Assembly (NCBI GenBank): GCA_963719125.1
Contig: CAVRAT010000007.1
Location: 63,859 to 127,858, forward strand
DNA: 64,000 bases
From: an uncultured Acidimicrobiaceae bacterium
Lineage (GTDB): Bacteria; Actinomycetota; Acidimicrobiia; Acidimicrobiales; Bog-793
Reading direction: 5' to 3'
The notes under the pieces were generated by a model. It was not told where the DNA came from, made no database searches, and saw only the letters and a list, made by a program, of their open reading frames with translations. The translations under genes were made by a program, and so were the position numbers. This document shows positions 1-64,000 of the stretch, in pieces (positions within the stretch are counted from its first letter, which is position 1; every line of letters begins with the position of its first letter).

Positions 1-275
1 CCGACCTCGCTTCCCTGGTGGATCGTGATGTGCTGCTCCCCGGCGGCGGCGCCCACGTCGGCCACGACGCTCACCCCGCTGCTCCCCGAGGTCGCCGATT
101 CCTCGAAATGAAACGAGCTCTCCCGCTTGGTCGCGGTGACCGCAGCCGCGATTATCTGCGCACCCGACTTCATCTGGACGCCATTGGACGCGGCGGGCCC
201 CCCTGGGGAGCCGCCGCAGCCGGCCGCGAACGCCATCGCGGCAGTCAACGTGACGAAGAGGGGGCGGGCACGCAT
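1..275 (-). CDS. Putative lipoprotein (partial, runs off the window edge; possibly LppX/LprAFG-like)
   Basis: Not in the ORF track. Manual translation gives MRARPLFVTLTAAMAFAAGC-GGSPGG...NGVQMKSGAQIIAAA with an AAGC lipobox. TAGCGT lies 6 nt upstream of the ATG (leaderless pattern). Confidence 0.75.
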   Translation of the reverse strand, partial: MRARPLFVTLTAAMAFAAGCGGSPGGPAASNGVQMKSGAQIIAAAVTATKRESSFHFEESATSGSSGVSVVADVGAAAGEQHITIHQGSEV

Positions 276-4953: not shown

Positions 4954-5766
4954 TTGTCTCATGGACCCGACCGCGACCTGGCACATGCCGACGCCCTTGA
5001 GGCACGAGAGTCGCAGCGCGTGAGCACAGACGGGCTGCTGGCGACTGATGACGCGCTGAGCCAGGACCTGCGGGGTCCCGACGCAGCTGACCTCGCCGCA
5101 GCCGCGCTCGAAATGGCGCGCCGGTTCGCCTCAGGCGCCACGCTCTGGTGCGCGGCACCTTCGTGGCCTTGGCATGCCCGCCATGTGGCCGTCGAGCTCG
5201 CCCGGCCCACGGAAAACGGCAAGCAAGCCCTTCCCGTCACCACGGTGCCGGATGGCCCGTTCTCCGAGATTCTGCGGCCGCTCGCGCGCGCGGGCGACAT
5301 GCTGCTCGTCATCTCGGGATCCGACGAGCCTTCGCTCGCCGATATCAGGCAACGGGCCCAGGCATGGGGTCTGCTCACCGTGTGGATCGGAGCGGGCCCC
5401 AGGCCGGAACCGGGCTCGGCCGATTACGTCTTGTGGACCGACGGCGACGAGACGGCCGCCTCGTACGGGGGGCGGTTCGCGCTTGTCGTCCACCTCCTCT
5501 CCGAATTCACACTGAGCTGCCTCGAGCATCCTCGCCTCCTCGCCCCGGAGCCGGCCGCGTGCACAAACGAGGTCTGCATCACTTGCTCGGACGAGGGTCG
5601 CCTCGGCGAGGTCGTGGCGATCGGGGCCGACGGGCGCGCCGAGGTCCGTACCCCGGACGGCCTCGAGGCGGTGGACACGACCCTGATCGAACCTGCCCGT
5701 CCAGGTGACCTCGTGCTGATCCACGCCGGCCTCGCGCTGGCGCTCGTCGACAGGTCGCCCAGATGA
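4954..5766 (+). CDS. SIS-like domain fused to C-terminal HypC/HupF-like domain (hydrogenase assembly protein)
   Basis: C-terminal CITCSDEG...VDTTLIEPARPGDLVLIHAG is HypC-like; N-terminal part is SIS-like (HARHVAVE, RAGDMLLVIS). Start uncertain. Confidence 0.8.
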   Translation: MSHGPDRDLAHADALEARESQRVSTDGLLATDDALSQDLRGPDAADLAAAALEMARRFASGATLWCAAPSWPWHARHVAVELARPTENGKQALPVTTVPDGPFSEILRPLARAGDMLLVISGSDEPSLADIRQRAQAWGLLTVWIGAGPRPEPGSADYVLWTDGDETAASYGGRFALVVHLLSEFTLSCLEHPRLLAPEPAACTNEVCITCSDEGRLGEVVAIGADGRAEVRTPDGLEAVDTTLIEPARPGDLVLIHAGLALALVDRSPR

Positions 5767-6479
5767 GCCGGGAAAACTCCGGTCTCCCCCATCAATTCGG
5801 CGATGGTGAGCGGGATCGCCGGGCGTTGCTGGCTGACCTGGCCGCGAGGGCCGAGGCTGAAGCCGAAGAGGCCAGCCGCCTGCGCCGCTCCAGCCTCGAA
5901 GCTCTCGGCAGTGAGCTCGAGCGGGCTGCGCGGGCGATTGCGCAACGCCTCAGCGCCGGCGCCTGCGTGTACAGCTTCGGAGACGGCGAGAGCTCGATTG
6001 ACGCCACTTGTGCGGCGGCATTGTTCAGCCGGTCCCGGGGCGCCTCACTGCCTGCCAGGAGTCTTGTCGCCGACCGGGCGGTGATTACCTCGGCCGGCGA
6101 CGATGCCGACCATGAGCTCGGCTTCTCCCGGCAACTGGCCGCTTCCGCGCGAGCCGGTGACATCGCGATCGGTTACTCGATAGGTCCGGAGGCGGACAAC
6201 GTCGTCGACGCCTTCGAGGAGGCCGGAAAACGCGGCCTTCTGACCGTCGGCTTCACCGGCTGCGCGGGCGGCCAGATGGCGACTCGCGGCGTGCTCGACC
6301 ACTGCTTCGCCGTGCCCTCGCGCGATCTGCACCGGATCCAGGAGGCCGTGATGGCACTCAGCTACGACCTCTGGGCGAGGGTGGAACAACTACCGACGCC
6401 TGACGGCGATCGACAAGCATTGAGCCAGCAGCAGACTGCCGCGGAGCAAGGACTGCTCGTAACAGAGGAGGCACGGTGA
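5763..6479 (+). CDS. SIS domain protein (GmhA phosphoheptose isomerase-like, divergent)
   Basis: FSRQLAASARAGDIAIGYS, GLLTVGFTG..GG, HRIQE motifs; the usual GNGGS motif reads GDGES. Confidence 0.8.
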   Translation: MSRENSGLPHQFGDGERDRRALLADLAARAEAEAEEASRLRRSSLEALGSELERAARAIAQRLSAGACVYSFGDGESSIDATCAAALFSRSRGASLPARSLVADRAVITSAGDDADHELGFSRQLAASARAGDIAIGYSIGPEADNVVDAFEEAGKRGLLTVGFTGCAGGQMATRGVLDHCFAVPSRDLHRIQEAVMALSYDLWARVEQLPTPDGDRQALSQQQTAAEQGLLVTEEAR

Positions 6480-7624
6480 GCGAGGAGGGCGAGGGCGTAG
6501 GCAGTTCGGAAACCACAGCGTCGCCACCCGCGCCAGCGGGTGGGGACCCGAGCGGGAGCGAAGCCGCCGTGCTCGAGCGCATCGAGGCCTTCCGGCGACG
6601 GCGGCCCCGGTTCCGGGATGACTTCGTCACCTTGGCGCACGGCGCCGGCGGCAAGGCATCGGCCGCGTTGATCGACGCCGTGTTCCTGGACGCCTTCGGG
6701 GGTCTCGAAAGGCCGCCGCTGACCGATGCCGCCCTCATCGCGCCCGGCCACGGTGAGATGCTGGCGTTCAGCACCGATTCGTTCGTTGTGAAGCCGCTGC
6801 GTTTCCCCGGCGGGTCGATTGGTCACCTCGCGGTCCACGGGACGGTCAATGACCTCGCCGTGATGGGAGCGCGGCCCCGCTGGCTGTCGGCGGCGTTCGT
6901 CATCGAGGAGGGCTTCGCGATAAGCGAGCTTCGCCGAGTCGTGGCCGACATGTCCGAGGCGGCCGCGGCGTCGGGCGTCACGATCGTGACCGGTGACACG
7001 AAGGTCGTCGGCCGAGGCGCCGCCGACGGGCTGTATGTGACCACGGCGGGCATCGGCGTAGTCCCTCCGGGACGCCGCGTCGGCGCCGATCTCGTCACGC
7101 GCGGCGATCGCGTTCTCATCTCCGGCACGATCGCCGATCACGGCATGGCGGTGATGCTGGCAAGAGGCGACCTGGCCCTCGAGGCAGAGCTCAAGTCCGA
7201 CACCGCCCCGATAAGCGGTCTTGTCGAGGTGTTGTTCGCTGCAGCCCCATCGACCCGTTGGATGCGGGACCCGACCCGCGGCGGTGTCGGGACCGTGTGC
7301 AACGAGCTTGCACACGACACCGGTCTCGCTGTCGTGCTGGACGAATCTGCCCTTCCGATCGATCCCGCCGTCGGCGGGGCCTGTGACCTGCTCGGGATCG
7401 ATCCCCTCTACGTTGCCAACGAAGGCAAGCTCCTGGCAGTCGTCGCCGCCAAGGAGGCCGACGCAGCCGTCGAGGCGTTGCGCGGCCATCCGCTCGGGGC
7501 CCACGCCATGCTGATCGGCGACATCCGCGCCGAGCCGCAGGGCATCGTCGTGCTGCGCACATCGTTCGGGGGAACCCGGATCGTCGACATGCTGGTCGGC
7601 GACCCGTTGCCGCGGATCTGCTAG
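6476..7624 (+). CDS. hypE: Hydrogenase expression/formation protein HypE
   Basis: LAHGAGG, FSTDSFVVKPLRFPGG, GTVNDLA, GDTKVV, MRDPTRGG, ANEG, C-terminal PRIC. Confidence 0.98.
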   Translation: MSEEGEGVGSSETTASPPAPAGGDPSGSEAAVLERIEAFRRRRPRFRDDFVTLAHGAGGKASAALIDAVFLDAFGGLERPPLTDAALIAPGHGEMLAFSTDSFVVKPLRFPGGSIGHLAVHGTVNDLAVMGARPRWLSAAFVIEEGFAISELRRVVADMSEAAAASGVTIVTGDTKVVGRGAADGLYVTTAGIGVVPPGRRVGADLVTRGDRVLISGTIADHGMAVMLARGDLALEAELKSDTAPISGLVEVLFAAAPSTRWMRDPTRGGVGTVCNELAHDTGLAVVLDESALPIDPAVGGACDLLGIDPLYVANEGKLLAVVAAKEADAAVEALRGHPLGAHAMLIGDIRAEPQGIVVLRTSFGGTRIVDMLVGDPLPRIC

Positions 7625-9964: not shown

Positions 9965-11092
9965 CTAACGGGGGCCGCCCATGGTGACGGCGACCTGCCT
10001 GTGAAGGCGGCCGAAGTTGTAGTAGGCCGCACACGCCCCCTCGGAGGAGACCATGCAGGTGCCGATGGGGGTCTCGGGAGTGCACGCGGTGCCGAACACC
10101 TTGCACTCCCACGGCTTGATGGCACCCTTCAGCACCTCGCCGCACTGGCAGGCCTTCGGGTCCGGGACACGCACGCCCGGCACGTCGAAAAGGAGCTCCG
10201 CGTCCCACCTGGCGAACTGCGGGCGCAGCTTGAGGGCGCTCTCGGGTATGAAGCCCAGGCCACGCCACTCGAACTGCGGCCGGACCTCGAAGACCTCGCT
10301 CATGATTGCAAGCGCCCGCGGATTGCCGGCCTCGCTCACACAGCGCGTGTACTGGTTCTCCACACAACAGCGGCCCTCGCTGAACTGAGTCAGAAGCATC
10401 GCTATCGCCTGGAGGATGTCGAGCGGCTCGAAACCAGCCGTCACGAAGGGCTTGCCGTACTCGTCCGCGACGAACCGGTACAGGAGCTGGCCGACAACCG
10501 TCGACACGTGACCGGGCCCGATGAACCCGTCGAGGCGGAGGTCGGGGGACTCGAGGATGGCCCTGAGCGGGGGAACGATCGTCACGTGGTTTGAGAAGAT
10601 GCTGAAGTTCATGACCGCGTCCTTCCTCGCCTTCAGCACCGTTGCCGCGGTCGAAGGAGCCGTGGTCTCAAAGCCAACGGCGAAGAACACGACGGGCCGC
10701 TCGGGGTTCTCGGCGGCGATCCGCAGGGCATCGAGCGGCGAGTAGACGACCCGGACATCGGCTCCCTGCGCCTTGGCACCGAGCAGACTGCCCTTTGAGC
10801 CGGGCACGCGCATCATGTCGCCGAAGGAGGTGAAGATGACCCCGGGCACCTGCGCCACCGCGACGGCGTCGTCGATGCGACCCATCGGGATCACGCACAC
10901 GGGGCACCCGGGGCCGTGCACCAGCTCGACCGACGTCGGGAGAAGGTGCTCGATCCCGTGACGGTAGATCGTGTGCGTGTGGCCGCCGCAGACCTCCATG
11001 AACTTGTAGTGCCCATCTCCTGCGAGCTCGGTGATACGGGACACGAGGGCGCGCGCCGCCGCGGGGTCCCGGTACTCATCGACGAATCGCAT
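9965..11092 (-). CDS. hypD: Hydrogenase formation protein HypD
   Basis: MEVCGGHTH, GPGCPVCV, GFETT, PGHVS, CQCGEVLKG, CMVSSEGACAAYY. Confidence 0.98.
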   Translation of the reverse strand: MRFVDEYRDPAAARALVSRITELAGDGHYKFMEVCGGHTHTIYRHGIEHLLPTSVELVHGPGCPVCVIPMGRIDDAVAVAQVPGVIFTSFGDMMRVPGSKGSLLGAKAQGADVRVVYSPLDALRIAAENPERPVVFFAVGFETTAPSTAATVLKARKDAVMNFSIFSNHVTIVPPLRAILESPDLRLDGFIGPGHVSTVVGQLLYRFVADEYGKPFVTAGFEPLDILQAIAMLLTQFSEGRCCVENQYTRCVSEAGNPRALAIMSEVFEVRPQFEWRGLGFIPESALKLRPQFARWDAELLFDVPGVRVPDPKACQCGEVLKGAIKPWECKVFGTACTPETPIGTCMVSSEGACAAYYNFGRLHRQVAVTMGGPR

Positions 11093-11182
11093 GACATTCC
11101 TCCCTTGTCTGCACGCGAAGCGCCGGAATCCCCGCAGCCGCCGCGACTGCGGTGGCTTCAGCCGCGCCCGCCCCCACCGCCA

Positions 11183-11455
11183 CTACGCGATCTGCGATTC
11201 GATGACCGCTTGAACCTCGTCGGTGTAGGCCTGACCCATCAGCTGGAGGCTCGCCAGAGCTCGTTGCGCCTCGGCCTCGTCGATCTTCGCCATGGCAAAG
11301 CCGACGTGGATGAGAACCCAGTCGCCCGGCGCCACGTTCTCGTCCTCCAACAGGTCGATGTTGATGTTGCGCCGCACGCCGGCGACGTCAACTTTCGCCA
11401 AGTGTGTGTTCGAGTCAAGAAGCTCGACTACCTCACCGGGGATCCCGAGACACAT
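11183..11455 (-). CDS. hypC: Hydrogenase formation chaperone HypC
   Basis: Begins MCLGIPG with a GGAGGA RBS; GDWVLIHVGFAM motif. Confidence 0.97.
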   Translation of the reverse strand: MCLGIPGEVVELLDSNTHLAKVDVAGVRRNINIDLLEDENVAPGDWVLIHVGFAMAKIDEAEAQRALASLQLMGQAYTDEVQAVIESQIA

Positions 11456-11706
11456 CGCTTCCTCCTCCAAACCCGACACTCGACGAGCTCGAGGATCAGA
11501 TCGCTCCCGCCCCTTGTGTAACGAGACTACCGGGCCCGGCGAGGGCGAAAAGCCGCGTGCCCCAGTCGGCGTGACCGTGGGGCGGGCCTGCGTACGCAAC
11601 AGCTGATCACGCACCGGGACCGTCCGGACACTATCCGTCAACATTCCAGTTGCGATGCGGGTACGATCTGAGCACATAGTCGCCTGAGTGACGCGTTGGG
11701 AGCAGC

Positions 11707-12180
11707 GTGAGCTTTGACCGTGAAGTTCGAACCGGGCGGGCCGTAGGTGCGGGTCGTCGCCCAACCGGGCCCGTGGTCAGCCTCGTGATCATCGTCGGTG
11801 CCGCCCTGCTCCTCACCTCAGCGGCCATCCATCTCCACCTTTGGGCCAATGGCTACAGGTACAAAGCGACTATCGGACCGCTGTTCTTCGCCCAAGGTTG
11901 CGTCGGCATCCTGCTCTCGGTGCTGATCTCGCTCATCAGGCGGATCTTCGTCACTGTGCTCGGAGCCCTGTTCGACGCCGGGACGATCACTGCCCTGCTC
12001 GTGTCGGTCCATGTCGGGCTGTTCGGCTACCACACCGACATGAGCGCGCCTTGGGCGAAGACGTCGGTCGTCATCGAAGCGGCGTCGGCCGTCGTGCTCC
12101 TCGTCGGCGGAGCAGTTTCGGTGTGGGTCGAAAGGGCTCACATCCGGCGCTGGCGATCGCTCAAGACACCTGCGACCTGA
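11707..12180 (+). CDS. Hypothetical integral membrane protein
   Basis: About four hydrophobic segments; SAAIHLHLW..GYR...IGPLF pattern recalled from actinobacterial membrane proteins. Confidence 0.7.
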   Translation: MSFDREVRTGRAVGAGRRPTGPVVSLVIIVGAALLLTSAAIHLHLWANGYRYKATIGPLFFAQGCVGILLSVLISLIRRIFVTVLGALFDAGTITALLVSVHVGLFGYHTDMSAPWAKTSVVIEAASAVVLLVGGAVSVWVERAHIRRWRSLKTPAT

Positions 12181-53512: not shown

Positions 53513-53659
53513 GTTCTCAATCCTGCCCGTCTCGTCCTGAGGCCGGGGCCTCGTTCCCCTCTACGGTATGGCGTGGACCATTGCCGCCGATCTCGGGAAC
53601 TCCCCACTCTCGAGCACTGAAATTCCCCAGTTGATCACCGGGGTGGGTTGTAGCTGAGA

Positions 53660-54451
53660 CTACTTGTCGTCCGGTGGCGTCACCCCCTTGCGTAGGTGCT
53701 CGGAACGAGCCCGGTGGGCGCGCATGCGGTAGCTGTCGCCGTCGATGTTGAAAACGACACTTCGGTGCAGCAGCCGGTCGAGCATCGCCGCGGCCACCAT
53801 TGGGTCGTCGAAGATCTTTCCCCACGAAGCGATGCCGAGATTGGTCGTCAAGACCGTCGAGGACTTCAAGTACCTGGTGGTGATGACCTGGAACAAGGCG
53901 GCTGCGGCCTCGTTGGCGAGCGGCAGGTAGCCGACTTCGTCAATCACCAACAGGCGTGGTCCGGCGAAAAAGCGCATCGTCGTCGCCCACCGGCCTTCGA
54001 GGGCGGCTCGGTGGCAACGCGCCACGAGGTCGGCCGCGGTCGTGTAGTAGGTGCGATAGCCGGCGTCGATCGAGGCCCAGGCGAGCGCGATCGCGAGCAT
54101 GGTCTTTCCCACTCCGGGCGGGCCGATGAACAGCACGTTGGTTGCGTCCTCCAAAAACCGCAGCGTGCCGAGCTCGTTGACCATCGCCCGGTCGATCGAC
54201 GGCTGGGCGTCGAAGTCGAAGTCCTGAAGACGCCAGGGCGAGGGCAACGAGGCGAAGCGTTCCAGACTGGCGCGCCGGCGCACCTCGACGGCGTCCACCT
54301 CGACGGCCAACAACCGTTCCAGAAAGGCACTGTGACCAAGCTTGTTCGCCTTGGCATTCTCGAGCTCTGCCGGGAGCGCCTCTGAGGCCGCTGCGAGGCG
54401 CAGGTAGGCGAGGTGGCTCCGCAGCTGTTGATAGATCGAGGCCTCGCTCAT
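53660..54451 (-). CDS. istB: IS21 helper ATPase IstB
   Basis: GPPGVGKT, LVIDEVGY, LTTN, AAMLDRLLH, GDSYR. Confidence 0.96.
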   Translation of the reverse strand: MSEASIYQQLRSHLAYLRLAAASEALPAELENAKANKLGHSAFLERLLAVEVDAVEVRRRASLERFASLPSPWRLQDFDFDAQPSIDRAMVNELGTLRFLEDATNVLFIGPPGVGKTMLAIALAWASIDAGYRTYYTTAADLVARCHRAALEGRWATTMRFFAGPRLLVIDEVGYLPLANEAAAALFQVITTRYLKSSTVLTTNLGIASWGKIFDDPMVAAAMLDRLLHRSVVFNIDGDSYRMRAHRARSEHLRKGVTPPDDK

Positions 54452-55752
54452 GCGATCACCTCGGCGAGCTCGGCGTATCGGGCAAGGTCGACGACGACCT
54501 CCCGGCCTTCTCGGCCCATGAGGCGTGCGGCTTCGGCGAGGGACTCCTTGCCCGGTGACCGGTTGGCCTTTCGGTCACAGGACCGCTCGGTGCTGAACGC
54601 AGCGAGCACGGCCGCCTCGAGTGCCTGGTGGTCCTCGGGCGTGCGCTTGATGAGACCGGCGCCCGCAAGAGCGAGCTGGTGGCGCGATAGCAGGCGGCCC
54701 GACAAGGCGTGGATCTCGAGTGTCGGAGTCGACAGGCGGTGGCGGACCTCGACCACAGTTGCGGAGAGCCCCGGCGGCACCGAGTAGCGGTTGCCCCTGA
54801 AGGCGACGGTGGCGTTGTCCGAGACGGTGCGCTCGACACAGATCGTCGCCGGGTAGGGCGCCCATGGCAGCGCCATGAGCGGCTCTCGGTCCGCGAGGGT
54901 CCCGACGGTCGTGCGGACTCCGTCTTGGTCACGGCGCTCACGGCTGTCGCCGGTCGTGGCCAAGAAGCGGTCGAGGGAGACCTGGGCCGACTCCGGGTCG
55001 CGCGCGGTCATGGTTCGCCACCACCGCCCCGAGCAGAACCGCACCGAGGACTCGACCGAGCCCTTGCGGTTCCCGCGCCTCGGCGGGCAGCACTCGACGA
55101 TTGCCCCGTAGTGCTTGGCGACCGGGGCGAAGCTGGGCTGGACGTCACCTGTGCCCGGCGTGATCACCGTGGCAAGCCGGTCGGTGCGCCAGACGTGCGC
55201 AGTGCCACCGAGGCGGCGCATCACGAGGTCCATCGCTTCTATGAGATGGGCCTGGTCCATCTTCTCTGCGAGCACGCCACGAATGCGTCCCGAGTGCGGA
55301 AGCGTGCCCAACAGCACATATGCGGTCGCGCCCCAGGGTGCATTGCGCCGCTCGAACCAGTCCCACTGGATCTCCTCGCCGGCGGGATGGCAGATCTCGA
55401 TGGTGTCGCGGCCCTTCACGCCCCGGCACGCCTCGCAGTGAGGTCGCAGGCCCCGCAAGCGGATCTGGCGGACAAAGCTCGGGTAGCTGAGGGAGTACCC
55501 GAGTGGGACCACCTCGTCATAGAGAGCGCTTGCCCAGACGTGACAGTCGTCGGCGAACCGAAGCCGGACATAGTTCTCGACGACGGCCAGCGGGTCGGCC
55601 TTCTGGTTGCGGCGCACGCCCGGTTGGCGTTCTCCGTTCAGATAGCCCCGGATGGTCTTGCGGTCGTGACCTTGGTGGCGGGCGATGGCTGAAATCGACC
55701 AGCCCCGCTCTCTCAAAGCATGTGCTTCCACGTCTTCCCCTTGTGTGAGCAT
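54448..55752 (-). CDS. istA: IS21 transposase IstA
   Basis: N-terminal HTH GWSISAIAR..G.DRKT, QWDW, TDR, RKGSVE, GNRYSVP; overlaps istB (ATGA). Confidence 0.94.
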   Translation of the reverse strand: MLTQGEDVEAHALRERGWSISAIARHQGHDRKTIRGYLNGERQPGVRRNQKADPLAVVENYVRLRFADDCHVWASALYDEVVPLGYSLSYPSFVRQIRLRGLRPHCEACRGVKGRDTIEICHPAGEEIQWDWFERRNAPWGATAYVLLGTLPHSGRIRGVLAEKMDQAHLIEAMDLVMRRLGGTAHVWRTDRLATVITPGTGDVQPSFAPVAKHYGAIVECCPPRRGNRKGSVESSVRFCSGRWWRTMTARDPESAQVSLDRFLATTGDSRERRDQDGVRTTVGTLADREPLMALPWAPYPATICVERTVSDNATVAFRGNRYSVPPGLSATVVEVRHRLSTPTLEIHALSGRLLSRHQLALAGAGLIKRTPEDHQALEAAVLAAFSTERSCDRKANRSPGKESLAEAARLMGREGREVVVDLARYAELAEVIA

Positions 55753-55912
55753 GACGGGTGGGTCCCTTCGACCTGGTAGGCGTAGGAACCGCCAGTCTCG
55801 AAGGGGCCCACCGCGAAACGGTGGACCGTCAGTCCAACCCGGTGCTCAAAGGTGGGGAATTTCGCTGATCATCTATGGGGAGTTTCAAAAATCGCGGGCA
55901 CCATCTGGGCGT

Positions 55913-56129
55913 TGGTCGGGATGGTCGGGTTGGTCGGCCTCTGGAACACACACAGGCCCCGGCGCGCGACTGGCCATCAACCTTGACTAACGCCTCTGTC
56001 TCCTACTCCTCTTTCCCTGTATAAACCCGACCAAATCGACCAATTGACGAGAAGTACCAGGTCGAAAGGGTAAGGCGCTGGTCGGTTGGCAGCCGGGAGG
56101 CCGACCAGTTAGTCGGTGAAACCCGACCA
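55913..56129. repeat. Cluster of CCGACCA/TGGTCGG heptamers (iteron-like)
   Basis: Exact copies at 55913, 55922, 55931, 56027, 56079, 56101, 56123; near copy at 56036. Confidence 0.7.
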
Positions 56130-56131
56130 GT

Positions 56132-56578
56132 TCAACCTTGGCCGTAGTTGTCGATGAGCCAAGGGCCATTTCCCAGGCGATGCATATCGATACCCCAAAA
56201 TGAGTCAGGATTACCCTCGTCTGCGGCCTGCGACTCTCTAAACGTGCATTGGACCTGGGCGTCGGTGGCTGTTTCGCTAACAAGGCCGCAGTGCAGGTGC
56301 GAGAAGGATGGCCATCCTGAAGTGTTTCCGCCACCCCAGTCCATCATGTCCCGTGTCGTCGGTTCAAAGTATGCGACGGCTGCCGAATAGTCCTTCTTAT
56401 TCACCGACTTGAACCACCCATAGGCTGTCTGAACGGGTGACTGCGGTGTGATTGCGTGGGCCGTCGTGTTCGTCAAGTCTGAAGTCCCCGTCGCAACGAG
56501 CACACCGACTCCGATACCGATGACCACTAGGACGGCCACGACGAACATGGCGATGGGGTGGCGGAGCGTGCGCATCAT
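56132..56578 (-). CDS. Secreted small protein, DUF4829/NTF2-like
   Basis: Leader MMRTLRHPIAMFVVAVLVVIGIGVGVL; SP......WF..VN.KDY; ends WLIDNYGQG; ATGA overlap with the upstream gene. Confidence 0.7.
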   Translation of the reverse strand: MMRTLRHPIAMFVVAVLVVIGIGVGVLVATGTSDLTNTTAHAITPQSPVQTAYGWFKSVNKKDYSAAVAYFEPTTRDMMDWGGGNTSGWPSFSHLHCGLVSETATDAQVQCTFRESQAADEGNPDSFWGIDMHRLGNGPWLIDNYGQG

Positions 56579-57134
56579 GCTGCCCCCACCGAGTCCAAGA
56601 TGGTCCTGGCGACCATGCCGTTCCCAGTCAACCCGATGGAGACGAAGACCGGCTTGTCGCGTCCGGGCACGTTTACCCTGAGAACGAGGATGGAGTAGGC
56701 GGGCGCGGTAGCCGGGCACGATGTCAGACCGTGGAGGACGAGGCAGTGAGCCGAAAGGGAGAGTGTCACCGTCGACTCGGTGCGTAACCCCGAATCCACC
56801 TGGACCCCATTCTCCGGCTGCTGGGGAGTCGGTCGAATGAGGGGGCAGGGCGGGCGGAGCAATGGACGCGCATCGGTGCTCAACGTCACTGACGTGTCCC
56901 AGAATGCCACGCCCTGTTCCCCACAGATGGCTCCTAGACCAGGGGTCACCTGGGTCCGATTGACCGGCCAGTTTGCTGGGGCCGAAAAACGCAGCCCGGC
57001 CAAGGTCACCTGTTGCCATGACGACGGGATTGCCGGTGAAGACCCTGGTGCGAGTACGACCGAGCGCGGTGACCAGGTGAGTGTGTGCAGGACTCGCTGG
57101 CCGAGTGGCCCGTCGACTGTGATTTCAACGCTAA

Positions 57135-58400
57135 GGGCTCACGCCGAGTTTGATTGAGCGTTGACGGTGTAGTTCCACTCGCCGTGAAAGTCGTGACGGT
57201 GGAGCGGAACCGCAGCCAGTTCCTTGTTGGTGACCTTGACGCCGGTTGGGTACCAGTTGGGGTCGTAGTCGGCTTGGATGGTGAGCCCGGTGCTGGTGGC
57301 GGTGGCGGAGATGAGCTCGATTATGGTGCGCAGGCTGGTAAGGGGTCGACCCCGCCAGTTAATGGTGATGAAGCTGAACATGCGGTGCTCGATCCGGTTC
57401 CACTTGGAGGTCCCCGGGGGGTAGTGGCACACCGTGATGGAAAGACCGGTCTCGGCGGCGAGACGAGCGAGCTGCACCTTCCATGTCCGAAGCCGGTAGC
57501 CGTTGGAGCCACCGGCATCTGCGGTGATCAAGATCCGCTGAGCGTCAGGGAACCGGGCGCGTCCCATCTGGTTCCACCATCTCCGGATGGACTCGACGGC
57601 GAACTCGGCTGTGTCGGCGGTGTCGCCGACATTGACCCAGCCCTCGTCATTGGCCACGTCGTAGATCCCATAGGGGATGGCCTTGGCGCGTTCGCCAAGG
57701 GCACGATCGGCGAAGTCGTGGACGTTCACGCGCTCGGGCTCGCCCGTGGGTGACCATTCGGCACCGCCATTGGCGTAGTTGCCGATCAGCTCCTTCTTCT
57801 TGGTGTCGACCGAGATCACCGGCTGGTCATCTGTGATGAACGCCCCTGCCATGTCGTTCAGGTAATGGAACTGGGCGTCGCGATCGGGATGCTGGCGTCC
57901 TTCGGTCACTTTGGCATTGGCCTGCAAGGAGTAGCCGAGACGGTGCAACAGCCGCAACACCGTGCGCGACGACACCTCGAAGCCTTGGAGGACGAGCTCG
58001 TCGGCCAGGTTCGTCGACGACTTCGATGTCCAGCGCAGCCGCGACATCGGGTTGCCCCTAGTCTCGGGATATACGAGCTCGTCGAGCGCGGCGAGGAGGC
58101 CAGGCTGACGTTCAATCAAAGGTTTGTCACCACCACCCGGTGCGCGCAGACGGGCCGCCGGCTCGATACCCGCCGTCACTTCGGACTCGGCCTTGATCAC
58201 CGTGTTGCGGCTCATGCCAGAGGCCGTCGCCACCGCGGTCTTACCGCCGCGGCCCAGCATCTCCGATGCCGCACCGGCCACGACGCGTCGCTGCACCTCG
58301 TTCATGTGCGGCAGCACCACTTCGAAGAATCGCGCGAGCGCCTCCTCAGTGACCTCCACACGGCCAGGATACTACGCGCGCACTAACCTGGCGTGGACCC
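57135..58400 (-). mobile_element. ISAzo13-family insertion sequence
   Basis: Inverted repeats GGGCTCACGCCGAGTT / AACCTGGCGTGGACCC; TAA duplication at 57132-34 and 58401-03. Confidence 0.93.
57139..58359 (-). CDS. ISAzo13-family transposase
   Basis: LRWTSKS, GYSLQAN, HPDRDAQF, ISVDTKKKE, ITADAGGSNG, PPGTSKWNRIEHRMFS, FHGEWNY. Confidence 0.96.
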   Translation of the reverse strand: MEVTEEALARFFEVVLPHMNEVQRRVVAGAASEMLGRGGKTAVATASGMSRNTVIKAESEVTAGIEPAARLRAPGGGDKPLIERQPGLLAALDELVYPETRGNPMSRLRWTSKSSTNLADELVLQGFEVSSRTVLRLLHRLGYSLQANAKVTEGRQHPDRDAQFHYLNDMAGAFITDDQPVISVDTKKKELIGNYANGGAEWSPTGEPERVNVHDFADRALGERAKAIPYGIYDVANDEGWVNVGDTADTAEFAVESIRRWWNQMGRARFPDAQRILITADAGGSNGYRLRTWKVQLARLAAETGLSITVCHYPPGTSKWNRIEHRMFSFITINWRGRPLTSLRTIIELISATATSTGLTIQADYDPNWYPTGVKVTNKELAAVPLHRHDFHGEWNYTVNAQSNSA

Positions 58401-58914
58401 TAAGCGATGGAACCAGGTAACTGCTCTGCGGTCCCGTAGGGTAGGGGTACACGAAGATGTCGTTGATGACCTCTGGGTGACCGAGGACGGTGCTGTGTGG
58501 AGACGTTGGCGGTCCGAACCTGACCGTGGTGCTCGGACCGGGAGCGGTCTCCAAAGGACAGGCGAAGACTCCAGGGGGTGGATTGACGAATACCTCTCCT
58601 GGCGGCGAGCCAGTAGGGCACGGCGGCGAGTTGTAGAGCACCCACCAGGTCGGTGGCACGGACACCTGCGCGTTGCCGAAGGCGACCGGTACCCATCCGG
58701 TCGGTGTGGTCAAGAAGTCAACCGCGGGGAGCGCCTTGGCCGTGGTCGGCACCGTTGTTGTAGCGAAGGTCTGCGAGCTAGTGAACACGCTGAGCGCTAC
58801 GGCTATGACCACCATCGCGAGCGCGCGCAACTTCATTGTCGTCATGCTCCCATGAAGCCGGGACGGAACAGGTTCGCGTACGACGCCTACACCCCCATCA
58901 AGACGGCGCGGTCA

Positions 58915-60246
58915 TCACTTAAGTAAACAGACCACTTCGACACCCGGTGTCTTCTTCCCGGCCCTGACACGCACAGGTTGGTCCGCCGCGCATGTCCCCT
59001 CCACTCCGTTGACCGAGAACATCGGACTGTGCCCGGTGAGTCGGTACAACCCTGCTGGCAGCCAGAGCACGAACTTGCCGCTCTTGGCAACCGCCACCGT
59101 GAACTTGTGCCCGGCTGAGTTCTGGGCCGTCACCTGACCCGGCAGCGGTCTAGGTGAACCGGGGGCTGGGCCTCCTACCGCGACGAAGCTGCCCGTGACC
59201 GAACCGAGAGCCCCGCTCGAAGACGCGGCCCGCAATGAGTACAGGATGGTCCTGGCGGTCATGCCGTTGCCTGCCAAGCCGATGGAGAAGAAGACCGGCT
59301 TCTTGTGCCCCGGCACCGTGACGTTGAGGACGAGGATGGAGTACGCGGGCGTGGTCGCCGGGCACGCCGTCAGGCCGTGAAGGTCAAGGCAATGAGCCGA
59401 GAACGCCAGGTGCAAACCCTCCGTGGCGAGTTCGCTGAGCGTATTGGACCCGGTGTCAACTTCGACACCGTCTCCTGGGTAGACGGGTGGTCCCGGAGTC
59501 CCTGATTCGTTCGGGCACGGGAAGGCGGCCAAGCCGCTGTCGGTGCTCAGAACCACCTCTCCCCCGCCCACTCCTTCGTTGAAGAAGCTCACACCTGGCG
59601 ACGAGGCGCAGGGCGTGTCGACGCCGTAGTTGAGCAAAGTCCGGGTTACCGGCCACCACGCGGGCGATGTGAACGAAAGCCCATGGAAGGTCAAGGTGTG
59701 CCAGCCGTACGGGACCACAGGTCCTGGGCCAGAAGCCAGAGCGATGACACGAGGCGAGCGGGTCAGGGTGTGCAGGACCCGTTGCGCAAGCGGCCCGCTA
59801 GCGCCGAACTCAAGGCGAAGCGATGGAACGAAATAGGTTCCGAGGTCGTCGTAAACCGAGAACCCGTTGATGACCGTCTGATGCTTGTAGCCGCTCCCTA
59901 CCTTCGCAAGCAAGGCCATCCAAACCACGTTCTTCGGCCCTCGACCGGCCGTCTCATTCGCGCCGCAGACTCCTGGATTGACGAGGACCTCTCCCGGCGG
60001 CGAACCAGTTGGGCACCCCGAGGAGTTGTAGAGGACCCACCAGGTCGAGGGCACCGATATCTGCACATCTCCGTAGGCCACTGGTATCCATCCGCCTGGT
60101 GTGGCAGAGAGGTCTACGGCAGGGAGCGGTTTGGTTGTGACCACCGTCGTGGTAGTGGTTGTAAAGACCGTCTGGGAGCTGGTACATGCAGCGAGGACCA
60201 GCGTCAGGACCACCAGCACGAGGGCGCGCAACCTCACTGTGGTCAT
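58915..60246 (-). CDS. Lipoprotein with C-terminal carboxypeptidase-regulatory/Ig-like domain
   Basis: LAAC lipobox, Thr-rich linker, Cys-rich body, C-terminal G.VTG...VGGPAPG.PRP..G.V...G.F...LP.G.Y.L domain. Confidence 0.8.
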   Translation of the reverse strand: MTTVRLRALVLVVLTLVLAACTSSQTVFTTTTTTVVTTKPLPAVDLSATPGGWIPVAYGDVQISVPSTWWVLYNSSGCPTGSPPGEVLVNPGVCGANETAGRGPKNVVWMALLAKVGSGYKHQTVINGFSVYDDLGTYFVPSLRLEFGASGPLAQRVLHTLTRSPRVIALASGPGPVVPYGWHTLTFHGLSFTSPAWWPVTRTLLNYGVDTPCASSPGVSFFNEGVGGGEVVLSTDSGLAAFPCPNESGTPGPPVYPGDGVEVDTGSNTLSELATEGLHLAFSAHCLDLHGLTACPATTPAYSILVLNVTVPGHKKPVFFSIGLAGNGMTARTILYSLRAASSSGALGSVTGSFVAVGGPAPGSPRPLPGQVTAQNSAGHKFTVAVAKSGKFVLWLPAGLYRLTGHSPMFSVNGVEGTCAADQPVRVRAGKKTPGVEVVCLLK

Positions 60247-60294
60247 CGTTCCATGAAGTCGAGAGAGGACGGGTTCGCGCACCGTCGCCAGTCT

Positions 60295-60624
60295 CTAGTC
60301 ACGGGTGTCGAAGAAGTCGGCAGTGACCCTGTAGCCAGCCCGTACCGCCACACCCTTGGAACCTCACCAACCCGTTACGCGGTACGTCCCAGGACTGACT
60401 GAGAACCGGTACTGGCTACCTGAGCGGACCGTCTCGGAGGCGGCAAGGCTCGGCCCTGAATAGAGGCTCACCTTGACATGCAGAACGTCACCAGGCGGGA
60501 GTGCGAGTCCCTGGCAAGCGTAGGCAACCCCGGTCACGACGCCGATGGGCTTGGCGGTGCTCGTCGTGCAGGCGCCCAGCATTAGCGTCACGACCACCAT
60601 CGCGACTGCCACGAGCTTGCGCAC
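60295..60624 (-). pseudogene. Small lipoprotein (carboxypeptidase-regulatory-like) with in-frame TGA at 60364-60366
   Basis: LGAC lipobox; ..YRFSVSPGTYRVTGW*GSKGVAVRAGYRVTADF.. continues to TAG 60295. Confidence 0.7.
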
Positions 60625-60660
60625 CGTGGTCTCAGGTCGAACCCAGCGACGTAGGCGCTC

Positions 60661-61644
60661 TCATGGGTCGACGCTGACGACAGTCCCGACGAACGGGCCG
60701 TTGCCGGTATCGAGTTGCCAGGAGAACTTCACGACCCGTACCTGCGACACCTTCGGCACCGTCATCTCCATCGCGAACCTTGCCGTCTTGCCAGCTTCGA
60801 GGCGACCGATGGCCCGACAGTGAAGTTCGTAGGACCAGGTGTGGAGCTGAACCTTTGAGCCTTTGGTCAAGGTGAGGAACTCGGTGTAGCCGGGGCACGG
60901 CGAGAACGTCACTGCTCGGGAGCCTGGGTTCGAGAGGACAACGGTGTAGTGGAGAACCTGACCACCCTCGATACGAACGGGGGGTTCGACCCTCGCCTGT
61001 AGGGAGGCGAGCGTGCCAGGCACCGGGACGAAGACGCCAGGGACAGGAGGCGTGACCCCGAGCTGGCTCTCCCAGAACCCGTCCGTGTAGCCGCACGGCG
61101 GAAAGCTCTTGGTGGTGAAGGAACCCGCGTTGTTCGGCAAGCTAATGACTACGGCTCGATAGACGACGGGAGGCGCTGTCGTTGTCGGGTTGAAGCACTG
61201 GTCCGTTCCGGCAAGAAGGAACTCCCCTCTGGCACCCGGTCGCAGGTTGGCGGCTGTCATGTTCCCGAAGTAGGTGCCGTGTTCCGGTTTCAGCGAGACG
61301 CGCGCACCGGAGGTCGTGATGGCGGTCAAGGTCGGATAACCAGATAGGCGGCAGATCACCTTTCCCACGTTTGTCATGTAGAAGTTGTTGGCGATGTTGC
61401 CCATCCCGACACCGCCAGTACCTGCCCGTATGCGCAGGGCTGAGGTCGAGCACGGCAGCGCGGGGGCAAGCGTCGTCGTGGTGTTAGTGGTCGATGTCGT
61501 CTGCGGTGCCGGGGTCGATATCCAGGCAACAACTCCTGTCATGGTGCGGTGAGGTGGGGTCGAGGAACCGGTACAGGCGGCGAGGACCACACCGGAGACC
61601 ATCAAGGTCATGGCCACTGCCGCGACTGCAAAGAGCTTGCGCAC
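60661..61644 (-). CDS. Lipoprotein with DUF4232-like domain plus second beta domain
   Basis: LAAC lipobox; C..SAL....G..GVGMGN......TN....C.LSGYP; second domain Y.V.L.N.......F.PCP.Y. Confidence 0.8.
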   Translation of the reverse strand: MRKLFAVAAVAMTLMVSGVVLAACTGSSTPPHRTMTGVVAWISTPAPQTTSTTNTTTTLAPALPCSTSALRIRAGTGGVGMGNIANNFYMTNVGKVICRLSGYPTLTAITTSGARVSLKPEHGTYFGNMTAANLRPGARGEFLLAGTDQCFNPTTTAPPVVYRAVVISLPNNAGSFTTKSFPPCGYTDGFWESQLGVTPPVPGVFVPVPGTLASLQARVEPPVRIEGGQVLHYTVVLSNPGSRAVTFSPCPGYTEFLTLTKGSKVQLHTWSYELHCRAIGRLEAGKTARFAMEMTVPKVSQVRVVKFSWQLDTGNGPFVGTVVSVDP

Positions 61645-61651
61645 AATGGTC

Positions 61652-63442
61652 CTAAAGCAAACCCATTGACGGACACTGGACTTTGCCCCACAGGTTTGGA
61701 AGAAGGGGGCCTGTCCACGGCTTCGGTTTCGCTGGCAGAAGGAAAACCGACTTGGACTCGGTCAGCGCCAACGAGACCAGCTCAAGCCGACTGGAGCCGA
61801 CGAACCACTCAGCGTCGAAGGCCAGTTGTCCTGTCTTCGTGAGACAGAGGACGACGCCTTCGGCTTGGATGTTCAGGATGTTCAGACACCACAGGCGACG
61901 CCCGAGCACCGTTCGGTGGGACAAGACCAGCGGGCCGAGGATGTTGGTGCTGAGGTTCTCCATGACCCACATGGGCATCCGGTATCCCTCAACCTGCATG
62001 ATTTGCCCGATGCTCTGCGGGCCGAACGGCCCGACACATTTCCAAGCCCTCCGTGGGGCCGTTTCCAGGCACTCGTAGTCGCCGCCCCTACCAGTCTGGA
62101 TGAAGCGGAATGTCCCCCGGCCGAACGGGGTCTCGTAGACGAAGTTCCCCTCGGGGTCAGAACCCACCGCAGGCTCAGACCAGACCGCAAAGCTAGGAAT
62201 CTCACCTGGCAGGATGTCCAGCGGAGGGACGAATCGGTAGGTGGCCTCGAACGGCTCACGCAGCCCCTGGTGGGCCAGGGCCACGAATCGGGACAGGTCT
62301 GCGCGGCTGACGGTCGCCGTGGCGGTCACAGTTGGGGCTTTTGCTGACTGCCACGAGCGCCCGCCGTTGGTGGTGCGCCACATCAAGTAGGGAGGGTTGG
62401 GTCTATAACCTGAGAATCCGAGCACCAGCCACATTGTCGCGCTGGCGAGAGCCACTTCGCAGCTGTATTCGGAACTGTGAGGGATTCGCAACAGGGTAGT
62501 GAAGTGTTTGCCGCCATCTCGGGCGAGCCACACGTCCTCAGCGAGCACATAGAACATCGCCTCGCTATCTGAGGTGGGATATATCTGAACGCCATTCGAG
62601 ACGCCCCACGGAGACTCTAGGGTGACGAACTCCCGCCCTCCGTCGGTGGAACGAATCGCGTAGCCGCCGTTGCCGGTCACACAGAAGCCCCAGAGAGTAA
62701 CGGGCGACGTAGCGGTCAAATCACATCCGAACCCGCCTATGTAGCCGCCGGGTATCAGTTTGGCGAAAGTCCTGCCCCCATTATGGGAGACGAGCAGACG
62801 GGTGCTGCTGACCCCCCAGGTCAGGAGCAGCCACACGTTCGACCCAAAGACTGTCCAGCCGAACTGGTTCTCAGCTTCGATTGCCGTCACCGGCAATCGC
62901 CGGGTCATCCATCGGTCGCTCGTCACTGGCGATGAGGCGAGTTCGGATGACTTGCACTGACCTTCTCTTGAGCAGTTCCGGGAAACGAGCGCGTAGGCAC
63001 GCCCCCCTGTAAGGACGACTGGGGCTTGGAATCTGGCAAGTACAAGTCGCCAAGCCCTTCCCCCGTCGTCGGTCCAGTAGAGGTGGGCTGGGTTATCTTG
63101 GAAGTCCGCGCTGTACGCGTAGCCGTCCTGACGGTTTGCGAACTCGATGCCGTACATGCCCACAGGAGGCGAGCCGACCCGTACCCAGGATTGCCCGCCG
63201 TCGGCGCTTCGCATGAGCACAGGACAGGTCCCGGTGGAACATGGGTACGTCCCCAACATCCACAGGTAACCCGCGGCACCGGTCACGGCGGTAGGGGTAA
63301 CGCGCGCTCCTGTCGCCGACGTAAGGTCGAAGCCCTCGGTGACCCTCGCCGTCGTCGGGCGGCTGGCCGAGCTTGTCCCGGCAGCGACCATCAAAGTCAT
63401 GGTCACTGTCGCGACTGCCACGAGCTTGCGCACCGTGCGCAT
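61652..63442 (-). CDS. Secreted BNR/Asp-box repeat protein with C-terminal four-Cys domain
   Basis: Repeated S/T-x-D/N-GG-x-x-W/F motifs (SADGGQSW, TDDGGRAW, SHNGGRTF, STDGGREF, ARDGGKHF, TTNGGRSW). Confidence 0.85.
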   Translation of the reverse strand: MRTVRKLVAVATVTMTLMVAAGTSSASRPTTARVTEGFDLTSATGARVTPTAVTGAAGYLWMLGTYPCSTGTCPVLMRSADGGQSWVRVGSPPVGMYGIEFANRQDGYAYSADFQDNPAHLYWTDDGGRAWRLVLARFQAPVVLTGGRAYALVSRNCSREGQCKSSELASSPVTSDRWMTRRLPVTAIEAENQFGWTVFGSNVWLLLTWGVSSTRLLVSHNGGRTFAKLIPGGYIGGFGCDLTATSPVTLWGFCVTGNGGYAIRSTDGGREFVTLESPWGVSNGVQIYPTSDSEAMFYVLAEDVWLARDGGKHFTTLLRIPHSSEYSCEVALASATMWLVLGFSGYRPNPPYLMWRTTNGGRSWQSAKAPTVTATATVSRADLSRFVALAHQGLREPFEATYRFVPPLDILPGEIPSFAVWSEPAVGSDPEGNFVYETPFGRGTFRFIQTGRGGDYECLETAPRRAWKCVGPFGPQSIGQIMQVEGYRMPMWVMENLSTNILGPLVLSHRTVLGRRLWCLNILNIQAEGVVLCLTKTGQLAFDAEWFVGSSRLELVSLALTESKSVFLLPAKPKPWTGPLLPNLWGKVQCPSMGLL

Positions 63443-63540
63443 CTTGACACTGACCACCAGCGTCGGGGCGTCGCGGGAAAAGGTGGCTGTCCATCTCGGC
63501 GTCAGGGAACCTCCCCCAGCACGTCGGGCATGATGAAGCC

Positions 63541-63795
63541 ATGACGGATAAATGGTCATGTCAGCACTTCTCCCTCGCCAACCCGCTAAACCGGGGAGCC
63601 ACCGACCTGCCCAGGCTGCTCCGGCGTGTGGCCACCGAGATTGAGAAGCGCGACATCGGCCCCATGGACCTCCTGGACCTGACAATCCATCAGGAAATGA
63701 CCGGCGACGGGCCATGGTGGTCCGCGACGGTCTACTGGTCACCTGACAGCCCGGCGGATGGGGGTCTCGGCAAAGACGAGGGTGACAGCCGGTGA
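63541..63795 (+). CDS. Small hypothetical protein
   Basis: HFSLANP....DLPRLLRRVA..IE...WWSATVYW; CATGAT 6 nt upstream of the ATG. Confidence 0.7.
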   Translation: MTDKWSCQHFSLANPLNRGATDLPRLLRRVATEIEKRDIGPMDLLDLTIHQEMTGDGPWWSATVYWSPDSPADGGLGKDEGDSR

Positions 63796-64000
63796 CCCCA
63801 TGACCGGCTGGGCACCACCCTTGCCTCGCCAGATGACGCCCGGTGCGCAGACGACCACAACGAGGACATCATGGTCCGATGATGGAACTGGGCCGCGGAA
63901 GTCGCACCGAAGCCCCGGCAAGCGCACCTCGTTCCGCAACCCGTAGGAGTAGCCGCACACGCACAGCGCCGCGACCGTTCTTCCGGCCGACGCGACCTAC

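Follow-up and report, generated by a model that had tools for sequence, protein, structure and literature searches.

Surface-protein families in which a single leader serves many different bodies are known in detail from host-associated pathogens (Borrelia, Mycoplasma, and Staphylococcus), where they are read as antigenic variation. In the Erp family of Borrelia burgdorferi (OspE/OspF/Elp), as the published account describes it, a leader that arose once is joined to bodies with many separate origins, and recombination is frequent (PMC10016077). The Vpma genes of Mycoplasma agalactiae and the Vsp genes of M. bovis are described as clustered lipoprotein genes with a conserved signal-peptide region and diverse mature parts, switched by site-specific inversion with an adjacent tyrosine recombinase (Xer1), sites of ~72 nucleotides (nt) in the 5' untranslated region (UTR), and one promoter per locus (PMC2268961). 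In the lpl cluster of Staphylococcus aureus, homologous recombination is described as acting at a conserved stretch within every tandem open reading frame (ORF), so that each evolving unit starts in the 3' part of one gene, takes in the spacer, and ends in the 5' part of the following gene (Tsuru and Kobayashi 2008, PMC2568036). Here, we studied an array of six co-oriented genes, g1 to g6, which the ORF list places on the minus strand from 63442 down to 56132 of a window of 64,000 nt (the whole stretch of DNA that was analysed) from contig CAVRAT010000007.1 of an uncultured Acidimicrobiaceae bacterium (assembly GCA_963719125.1). The genome is a metagenome-assembled genome (MAG) of 3.92 Mb in 34 contigs, 85% complete and with 2.3% contamination. 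The initial annotation of this window had proposed that its genes reuse the DNA of one signal peptide in front of unrelated mature domains, and that this leader is a recombination handle in a cassette system behind one promoter.

Leaders in the array are alike as DNA, and the bodies behind g1, g2, and g3 are unrelated. Direct reading and blastn agree with the earlier observation that 63409-63437 in g1 and 60600-60628 in g3 are identical at 29/29 positions, and blastn likewise returns the reported match of 43/48 nt (89.6%) between the leaders of g1 and g2; BLASTP likeness among the three proteins stops within the first 26-38 residues. However, g4 and g5, which had also been taken to carry unrelated bodies, are full-length paralogues with 51% identity. 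To test for chance, we took 236 leader candidates from the whole genome (g1, g5, and 234 lipobox-like N-termini) and compared their first 75 nt across 27,730 pairs. Among unrelated pairs, exact shared runs did not exceed 15 nt, and the g1/g3 run measures 25 nt within the coding sequence, or 29 nt with 4 upstream bases. Runs of at least 24 nt occur in 17 pairs: apart from g1/g3, these are copies of repeats, members of the duplicated array, and two further duplicated genes. What is exceptional in g1/g2 and g1/g3 is local patches rather than overall identity: the first 29 nt of g1 and g3 are identical and silent-site differences appear afterwards, and over the full 66-nt leader both pairs reach 74% identity, which is merely in the top 10.7% of different-body pairs in the genus. 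The likeness also begins before the genes do. As had been noticed from the letters, AGG-ACC or GAG-ACC stands 9 nt 5' of the GTG starts of g2 and g3; relatives show ATG-ACC (MTTVRKL...) at these places, so homology reaches a few codons upstream of the present start codons. The leader form RKL[VFLGA] occurs in 5/234 lipobox-like starts of the genome, four of them within two arrays and the fifth (VRKLLVALGLVAVGIGASAC) on contig C18 outside the arrays; on contig C30, a gene begins with a related form, VRRL.

Silent sites show whether the leaders are alike as DNA or only as peptides. At leader positions with the same residue, the fraction of identical codons was 0.557 for different bodies in different genomes and 0.544 for different bodies in the same genome, against 0.37 expected from residue-specific leader codon usage and 0.665 observed in same-body orthologues. 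An agreement of 0.55 vs. 0.37 shows that the leader copies are homologous DNA on unrelated bodies. Within the array, the same-residue codons are identical at 10/13 sites for g1/g2 (P 0.007) and at 11/16 for g1/g3 (P 0.014). We calibrated this measure on bodies, for which the identical-codon fraction was 0.39 at 20-40% amino acid identity, 0.48 at 40-50%, 0.58 at 50-60%, and 0.71 at 70-80%. By that scale, leaders on unrelated bodies have a silent-site divergence of about that of 50-55% identical bodies, which, together with their restriction to one genus, suggests that, in or near the stem lineage of the genus, one leader spread to bodies that already existed. The ancestry of the leader would then be much younger than the bodies' own relationship, which is undetectable. 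A search of 55900-64000 against Rfam found nothing at E<=0.1; the conserved leader DNA is therefore not explained by any known RNA element.

The leader is specific to one uncultured genus of Acidimicrobiales. A profile of 27 positions, made from an alignment of leaders, matched 21/21 genomes of the same genus at E<=0.1 (18 with a best E<=3.3e-7), with 1 to 31 matches per genome that cluster in arrays; multiple arrays per genome are the rule. Elsewhere there were only weak single matches, in 1/5 sister genera of the family (21.5 bits) and in 2/80 other genomes of the order (23-29 bits). The close relatives are MAGs from bog, peat, and soil, and the window's DNA is matched in peat metagenomes. 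Across 29 loci, we counted 101 leader-bearing ORFs of at least 50 amino acids (aa); 98 of these, with bodies of at least 40 aa, sort into 35 strict body families, and 16 families have at least two members. Single-linkage clustering of bodies was tried and rejected, since it lumped first 60 and then 44 genes through multi-domain fusions and Thr-rich linkers; the strict criterion was used instead. A Pfam scan of 89 non-identical leader-bearing proteins found DUF4232 in 22 and a propeller of BNR/Sortilin/PSII_BNR type in 21 (mostly below cut-offs; 2 with both), along with DUF6923 (3), CarboxypepD_reg (2, the g3 family), Vgb_lyase (1), Trypsin_2 (1), and SGL (1); 40 of the 89 had no Pfam match.

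The consensus leader, TVRKLGAVAxVxMTLMLAAC-TSS, spans ~27 codons and is usually followed by a Thr/Ser/Pro-rich linker. The initial annotation was right that the lipobox Cys is kept in three genes (g2, g3, and g4) and missing from two, g1 having Gly and g5 Phe in its place. With a positively charged n-region, a hydrophobic h-region, and the lipobox [LVI][ASTVI][GAS]C within ~35 residues as the criteria, g2 (VLAAC), g3 (MLGAC), and g4 (VLAAC) fit; g1 (VAAG) and g5 (LSVF) fail and so are not members of the Sec/signal peptidase II class of lipoprotein signals. The Phe is retained in g5 orthologues of other genomes, and Cys-less leader ends recur in the genus (..LAASPSVASS, ..VVAGTSSASPP, and ..LAAWSGSSASAVA). 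That Cys-bearing and Cys-less leaders both recur across the genus agrees, on the sequence side, with the proposal of anchored and released versions. Both genes of the lipoprotein pathway that we looked for, Lgt (PF01790, 113 bits) and LspA (PF01252, 106 bits), are present in the genome above cut-offs. In the literature on lipoprotein families with conserved signal peptides we found no paper on Acidimicrobiia, which is not proof of absence.

The arrays are mosaics, and their junctions lie in or at the leader. When genes were grouped by homologous upstream DNA (at least 150 nt within -400..-20), 15 of the 16 resulting contexts preceded 2 to 6 differing body families in different genomes, so the expectation that gene order varies between genomes is borne out. 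For instance, the body found behind a divergent GntR gene is DUF4232 (in this genome, on contig C18), fam3, fam6, fam8, fam18, or fam2, that is, 6 body families in 7 loci. Among 86 pairs of genes with homologous upstream DNA and unrelated bodies, the BLAST match ended before the leader in 25, between +8 and +96 of the leader in 59, and beyond it in 2. A finer view comes from 41 triplets, each consisting of a gene, a partner that shares its upstream DNA, and a partner that shares its body, in which informative sites were counted as upstream-like or body-like. The ratio of the two was 444:76 at -60..-30 and 372:123 at -30..0; it stood at 144:146 in leader codons 1-9, 122:152 in codons 10-18, and 103:274 in codons 19-27; and it reached 133:451 at +81..115 and 103:462 at +115..150. 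These counts place the switch of partner inside the leader or at its 5' edge. A conserved nucleotide stretch thus does form the join of rearrangements between genomes, with an average signal that is weak.

Three hybrids give such joins individually. In genome G011, the gene after g2 has upstream DNA and a leader start of g3 type (PETMMRRLVVVAMVV) and continues, past the shared TCGCGATGGTGGTC(AT), as the leader and body of g5; this g3/g5 hybrid amounts to a deletion from one leader to another. In g1, the DNA on the 5' side and the h-region are those of a fam8 gene (genomes G008 and G019; 86.5% identity from -398 to +65), and g1 leaves this likeness after ..GTCGCTGCC, at the lipobox position, to enter its own body. 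The g2 copy on contig C18 carries the GntR-side flank of a first-in-array gene as far as ..ATGATTCC and is g2 from CCATTGTGCGC on, being identical to g2 from 5 nt before the start.

Contig C18 holds a second, paralogous array, in the order divergent GntR regulator, g2', g3', g5', and two genes in which the N-terminal transmembrane (TM) start of g6 type precedes other bodies. The two arrays sit on contigs of 338 kb and 271 kb. They share a block that runs from 5 nt before the start of g2 to 15 nt past the stop of g3 and is identical at 1300/1301 nt, with unrelated flanks upstream and about 70-75% identity downstream; this is either a very recent conversion or duplication with the leader as its left edge, or an assembly effect. 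In the C18 array, g5' is cut exactly at the end of its leader by an insertion sequence (IS) of DDE_Tnp_1 type (L001 about 5075-7000). About 2 kb upstream of this array is a truncated serine-recombinase (resolvase) gene (L001 1148-1609; profile positions 64-144 of 145), which lacks the catalytic N-terminus and is probably the remnant of a mobile element.

Four runs were compared with the window (all assembled contigs, which carry no rates, starts, or strand information). The order g1-g2-g3 is bridged by contigs of three independent peat metagenomes. An alternative joint without g4, from 58881 to 60293, occurs in 3 peat runs and is the arrangement of the paralogous C18 array. A single contig of one peat run (depth 5, side of 58 letters) joins 58880 to 63510, linking a point just upstream of g5 with one 68 nt upstream of g1 and skipping g1-g4; it could come from another strain or species, or be a deletion variant. 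Two other joints, 57038 to 60216 (side of 25) and 60558 back to 59221 (side of 36), may stem from other organisms or paralogues. Among the joints of these peat contigs that have a side of at least 30 letters, none falls inside a leader, and the contigs give no evidence of ongoing switching within the population.

We read the array as the outcome of evolutionary cassette shuffling by ordinary recombination within a genus-specific family of export leaders, with no programmed switch, and give this reading a probability of roughly 0.7. The six genes would be members of a multigene family, specific to the genus, that encodes lipoproteins of the cell envelope as well as secreted proteins, and in which one short Sec-type export module fronts unrelated bodies (DUF4232, BNR-type propellers, a small beta-sandwich, and other folds). 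A single leader sequence would have spread as DNA onto pre-existing bodies inside the genus, and in tight, co-oriented arrays its copies would form short direct repeats open to ordinary homologous recombination by unequal crossover, deletion, or conversion. The unit of recombination would be a body plus the next leader; its removal, duplication, or replacement would create new joints between leader and body and between promoter and body. Cys, Gly, or Phe at the lipobox position would probably distinguish lipid-anchored from non-lipidated forms. The comparisons show that the leaders are homologous, the bodies are not, the leader is restricted to the genus, the arrays are mosaic, and junctions lie in or at the leader; the pathway of recombination, transcription as an operon, lipidation or release, and any benefit are steps that we infer. 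The picture of a leader that is both address label and homology arm, with bodies exchanged behind it, is right in its evolutionary core.

Several points weigh against this reading. On average, the leader has been inherited together with its body: over 66 nt, mean leader identity was 0.674 for the same body in different genomes (191 pairs; an excess reached by 0/1000 label shuffles) vs. 0.631 for different bodies in different genomes (3418 pairs) and 0.620 for different bodies in the same genome (384 pairs). The BLAST matches that end in the leader (59/86) are partly trivial because all leaders resemble one another. In pairs that share only upstream DNA, leader identity by thirds was 0.717/0.693/0.586 vs. 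a background of 0.68/0.645/0.567; being so little above background, these leaders indicate that many breakpoints may sit at the extreme 5' edge of the leader or slightly upstream, and not inside it. Triplets and pairs are also non-independent, several loci being near-identical between MAGs. The excess of shared codons could owe something to position-specific selection on the 5' end of the mRNA, and the 1.3-kb block shared with contig C18 could be an effect of assembly or binning. Concerted evolution, in the sense of homogenisation of leaders within a genome, had been suggested by apparent genome 'flavours' of the leader and was rejected: the difference between 0.620 and 0.631 was reached by 885/1000 shuffles, and codon identity was likewise 0.544 vs. 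0.557. A few outliers stand apart from these means, 21/3802 different-body pairs being at least 85% identical, as in the DUF4232, BNR, and Trypsin_2 genes on three contigs of G001, with leaders at 91-92%.

Specialised, conserved signal peptides on unrelated proteins exist, for example, those of the YSIRK type, and with that precedent the whole pattern might be one of protein constraint: the lineage would require a particular signal-peptide sequence, perhaps for a dedicated sorting step, strong GC-biased codon usage would do the rest, leaders would have no particular part in recombination, and insertions and deletions would be events of whole genes. That one consensus is maintained over 35 body families, and that the leader mostly moves with its body, would fit. 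We nevertheless consider constraint alone unlikely, since it leaves unexplained a synonymous codon identity of 0.55 where 0.37 is expected, exact runs of 25-29 nt in a genome whose background is <=15 nt, homology that continues 4-9 nt upstream of start codons, the mid-leader hybrid in G011, and the gradual change of partner across the leader in the triplets. An artefact is the least probable account, in our view highly improbable: leader repeats could have led to chimeric assembly or mis-binning and so to apparent mosaics and a second array, and both the state of the MAG (its 34 contigs, completeness, and contamination) and the block of 1300/1301 nt amid diverged flanks would fit this. However, the junctions g1/g2 and g2/g3 are spanned by contigs from three further peat metagenomes, arrays of this kind recur in 21/21 genomes of the genus, assembled by different projects, several arrays per genome are usual there, and a leader of 60-80 nt is below read-pair length.

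A programmed cassette system, in which frequent leader-to-leader recombination swaps the body behind one promoter and makes surfaces phase-variable, would suit the GntR-adjacent slot with its 6 families in 7 loci, the junctions in or at the leader, and the alternative joints in the peat contigs (58881-60293 in 3 runs and 58880-63510 in 1 run). Yet the first of these joints equals the C18 array and the second is one contig at depth 5, and no joint with a side of at least 30 letters lies inside a leader. A Pfam scan of the larger flanking ORFs found no tyrosine or serine recombinase, or other site-specific recombinase, adjoining the window's array, only DDE/rve transposases and IstB; the truncated resolvase is 2 kb away from the second array. 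The six genes all have minus-strand orientation, with no inverted leader copies in the array, and because they are co-oriented, recombination would delete rather than invert and would not be reversible. No silent cassettes were found, every copy has its own start codon, and leaders are not homogenised within the genome. We thus hold a programmed system to be very unlikely, and the part of the initial annotation that made the array a dedicated cassette system is unsupported; its notion of the leader as a recombination handle survives in the partner switch inside the leader and in the three hybrids. A recombination-driven library, built on a portable export module that arose in this genus, with general recombination acting often enough in natural populations to change the first-slot body behind the GntR-type regulator, and with it anchoring or release, and with no dedicated recombinase, is an unlikely variant; if true, a free-living soil bacterium would gain surface heterogeneity without a dedicated recombinase. 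Evolutionary shuffling by ordinary recombination remains the reading that we prefer.

The array lies in an IS-rich stretch (Table 1), with a gene for an IS3-type integrase upstream of g1, beyond the window. What had been described as a single gene at 58845 is in fact g5 split by an element of the ISAzo13 family, which was missed in the initial annotation. This element has identical copies on contigs C8 and C9 and, 10 kb off, on its own contig; this last copy, at 67393-68666, is upstream beyond the window and in the same orientation. In 3 peat DNA runs, contigs lead straight from 57131/57132 to 58403 and so have the g5 site free of ISAzo13. Both g5 copies of the genome are interrupted, by different elements (ISAzo13-family in the window and DDE_Tnp_1 in the C18 array). 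The sixth gene, previously counted in the array of reused signal peptides, belongs to a different N-terminal class and starts with a TM segment (RHPIAMFVVAVLVVIGIGVGV). Segments of this g6 type have the form (R/L)RHPI..F..AVLVVIGIGVGV and are found on g6, on a YncE/lactonase-type propeller and another body of the C18 array, and on two genes of G011, with a likeness confined to 24-35 residues (57-81%).

Table 1. Coordinates of the six-gene array, the mobile elements in and beside it, and related loci (positions are those of the window unless a locus is named)
Feature	Position	Strand	Description
g1	61652..63442	-	596 aa, secreted; leader MRTVRKLVAVATVTMTLMVAAG-TSSASRP, without lipobox Cys; ORF
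g1 leader	63356..63442	-	Includes 63409-63437 (29 nt, identical to g3) and a 48-nt match to g2 (43/48)
g2	60661..61644	-	DUF4232 lipoprotein, 327 aa; GTG start; leader VRKLFAVAAVAMTLMVSGVVLAAC
g3	60364..60624	-	Small lipoprotein, 86 aa; leader VRKLVAVAMVVVTLMLGAC; ORF
g4	58915..60246	-	Lipoprotein, 443 aa, no Pfam family; leader MTTVRLRALVLVVLTLVLAAC
g5, 5' fragment	58405..58845	-	Leader MTTMKLRALAMVVIAVALSVF-TSS, Phe instead of lipobox Cys
g5, 3' fragment	56575..57130	-	Covers, with the 5' fragment, consecutive parts of the intact G020 orthologue
g6	56132..56578	-	148 aa; N-terminal TM segment of the second shared class (MMRTLRHPIAMFVVAVLVVIGIGVGV)
ISAzo13-family element	57131..58404	-	1274 nt, 406-aa transposase, splits g5; DDE_Tnp_ISAZ013 E 2.5e-136
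IS21-family element (istA, istB)	53580..55900	-	Downstream bound of the array; 99.96% identical copy on contig C13
Near-identical block g2-g3	60349..61649	-	1301 nt, one difference (61596) vs. the second array on contig C18
g6-type TM starts elsewhere	L001 7934-9157, 9255-9800; L017 about 10712-12029		L001, C18 array; L017, G011
Fused-body loci	L019 8446-10677; L025 10847-12541		With L020 3771-6114 of G019

Spacing of the genes (7, 36, 117, and 69 nt, with g5 and g6 overlapping by ATGA) makes transcription of the array as a single operon plausible. A consensus scan for signals stayed at chance level, with 1 promoter-like site vs. 1.2 expected and 3 terminator-like sites vs. 4.4 expected. Contigs from an RNA library (X17) lie over stretches of g4, g5, and g6, with a likeness of mostly 90-95%. 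These contigs derive from relatives, and we rejected them as proof that this array is transcribed; bins that lack RNA cover carry no information either way.

The bodies are a varied set. That of g1 comprises a propeller-like N-terminal part (Sortilin-Vps10 E 1.1e-7 and BNR E 1.4e-4, both under curated cut-offs) and a C-terminal domain that G019 encodes as a lipoprotein gene of its own. The DUF4232 match of g2 (E 2.9e-10) is above cut-off, and g2 has orthologues at 71-79% identity in 5 genomes of the genus. Pfam gave no match for g3, g4, g5, or g6. Only two of the scanned g3 orthologues have CarboxypepD_reg matches, both weak (E 2.8e-5 and 1.4e-6; below cut-off), and the g3 family, with 9 members under the strict BLAST criterion, is probably a CarboxypepD_reg-like beta-sandwich; the g4 family has 7 members. 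An AlphaFold2 model of g4 from an 11-sequence alignment was unusable for fold search (mean predicted local distance difference test [pLDDT] 44, predicted TM score [pTM] 0.35), and in the ESM Atlas g4 found only unnamed actinobacterial clusters, with scores <=0.84. The C-terminal domain of g4 (58915-59220) aligns weakly with g3 (23% over 82 residues, E 0.014), and g3 may be a free-standing copy of it. Bodies themselves have also been shuffled: g1 corresponds to two lipoprotein genes with their own leaders in G019 (L020 3771-6114), and a propeller of BNR type is fused to a g4-like part in G015 and to DUF4232 in both G015 and G016. Array bodies also serve as sensor domains of an anti-sigma-like protein in G020, where an ECF-sigma-like gene (extracytoplasmic function) is followed by a TM protein whose outer part has a g1-type propeller and the g4 C-terminal domain (L015 9816-12055), with 63% identity to g1 residues 44-389 and 85% to the g4 C-terminal domain.

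On the practical side, annotation pipelines will mis-cluster such genes by their N-termini, and the leader can serve as a marker for the secreted and lipoprotein repertoire of the genus. As for its place among known systems, lineage-restricted N-terminal export elements on diverse proteins also include the YSIRK-G/S and KxYKxGKxW types; these are defined at the level of protein and have a known sorting or secretion route, whereas here there is no known dedicated route and the likeness extends to synonymous sites. The same likeness and difference apply to the mycobacterial PE/PPE proteins as described (PMC4770551). The Vpma and Vsp loci, in the account cited above, resemble this array as clusters of lipoprotein genes that share a signal-peptide region, but here we see no adjoining recombinase, no inverted copies, and no conserved 5' UTR. 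The S. aureus lpl cluster, as described, is likewise tandem and co-oriented, and our triplet result gives a matching two-gene unit; its members are paralogues throughout with a central conserved stretch, whereas here only the signal-peptide leader is common and only g4 and g5 are paralogous. The closest described parallel is the Borrelia Erp family, in which a leader of common descent stands on independently derived mature parts. According to that description, each Erp gene has a conserved promoter/operator (the upstream homology box), and the genes occupy allelic sites on cp32 prophage plasmids of a host-associated spirochaete; here, the likeness of g1-g3 starts 4-9 nt before the start codon, and the arrays are chromosomal, tandem, and co-oriented, in a free-living peat actinobacterium. 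What this genus adds is a large and clean example from an uncultured free-living organism. The range of bodies is unusually broad, at 35 body families, while the leader is restricted to a single genus and breakpoints map to about 80 nt; a short signal-peptide repeat would here act both as address label and as homology arm for recruiting and removing unrelated surface domains.

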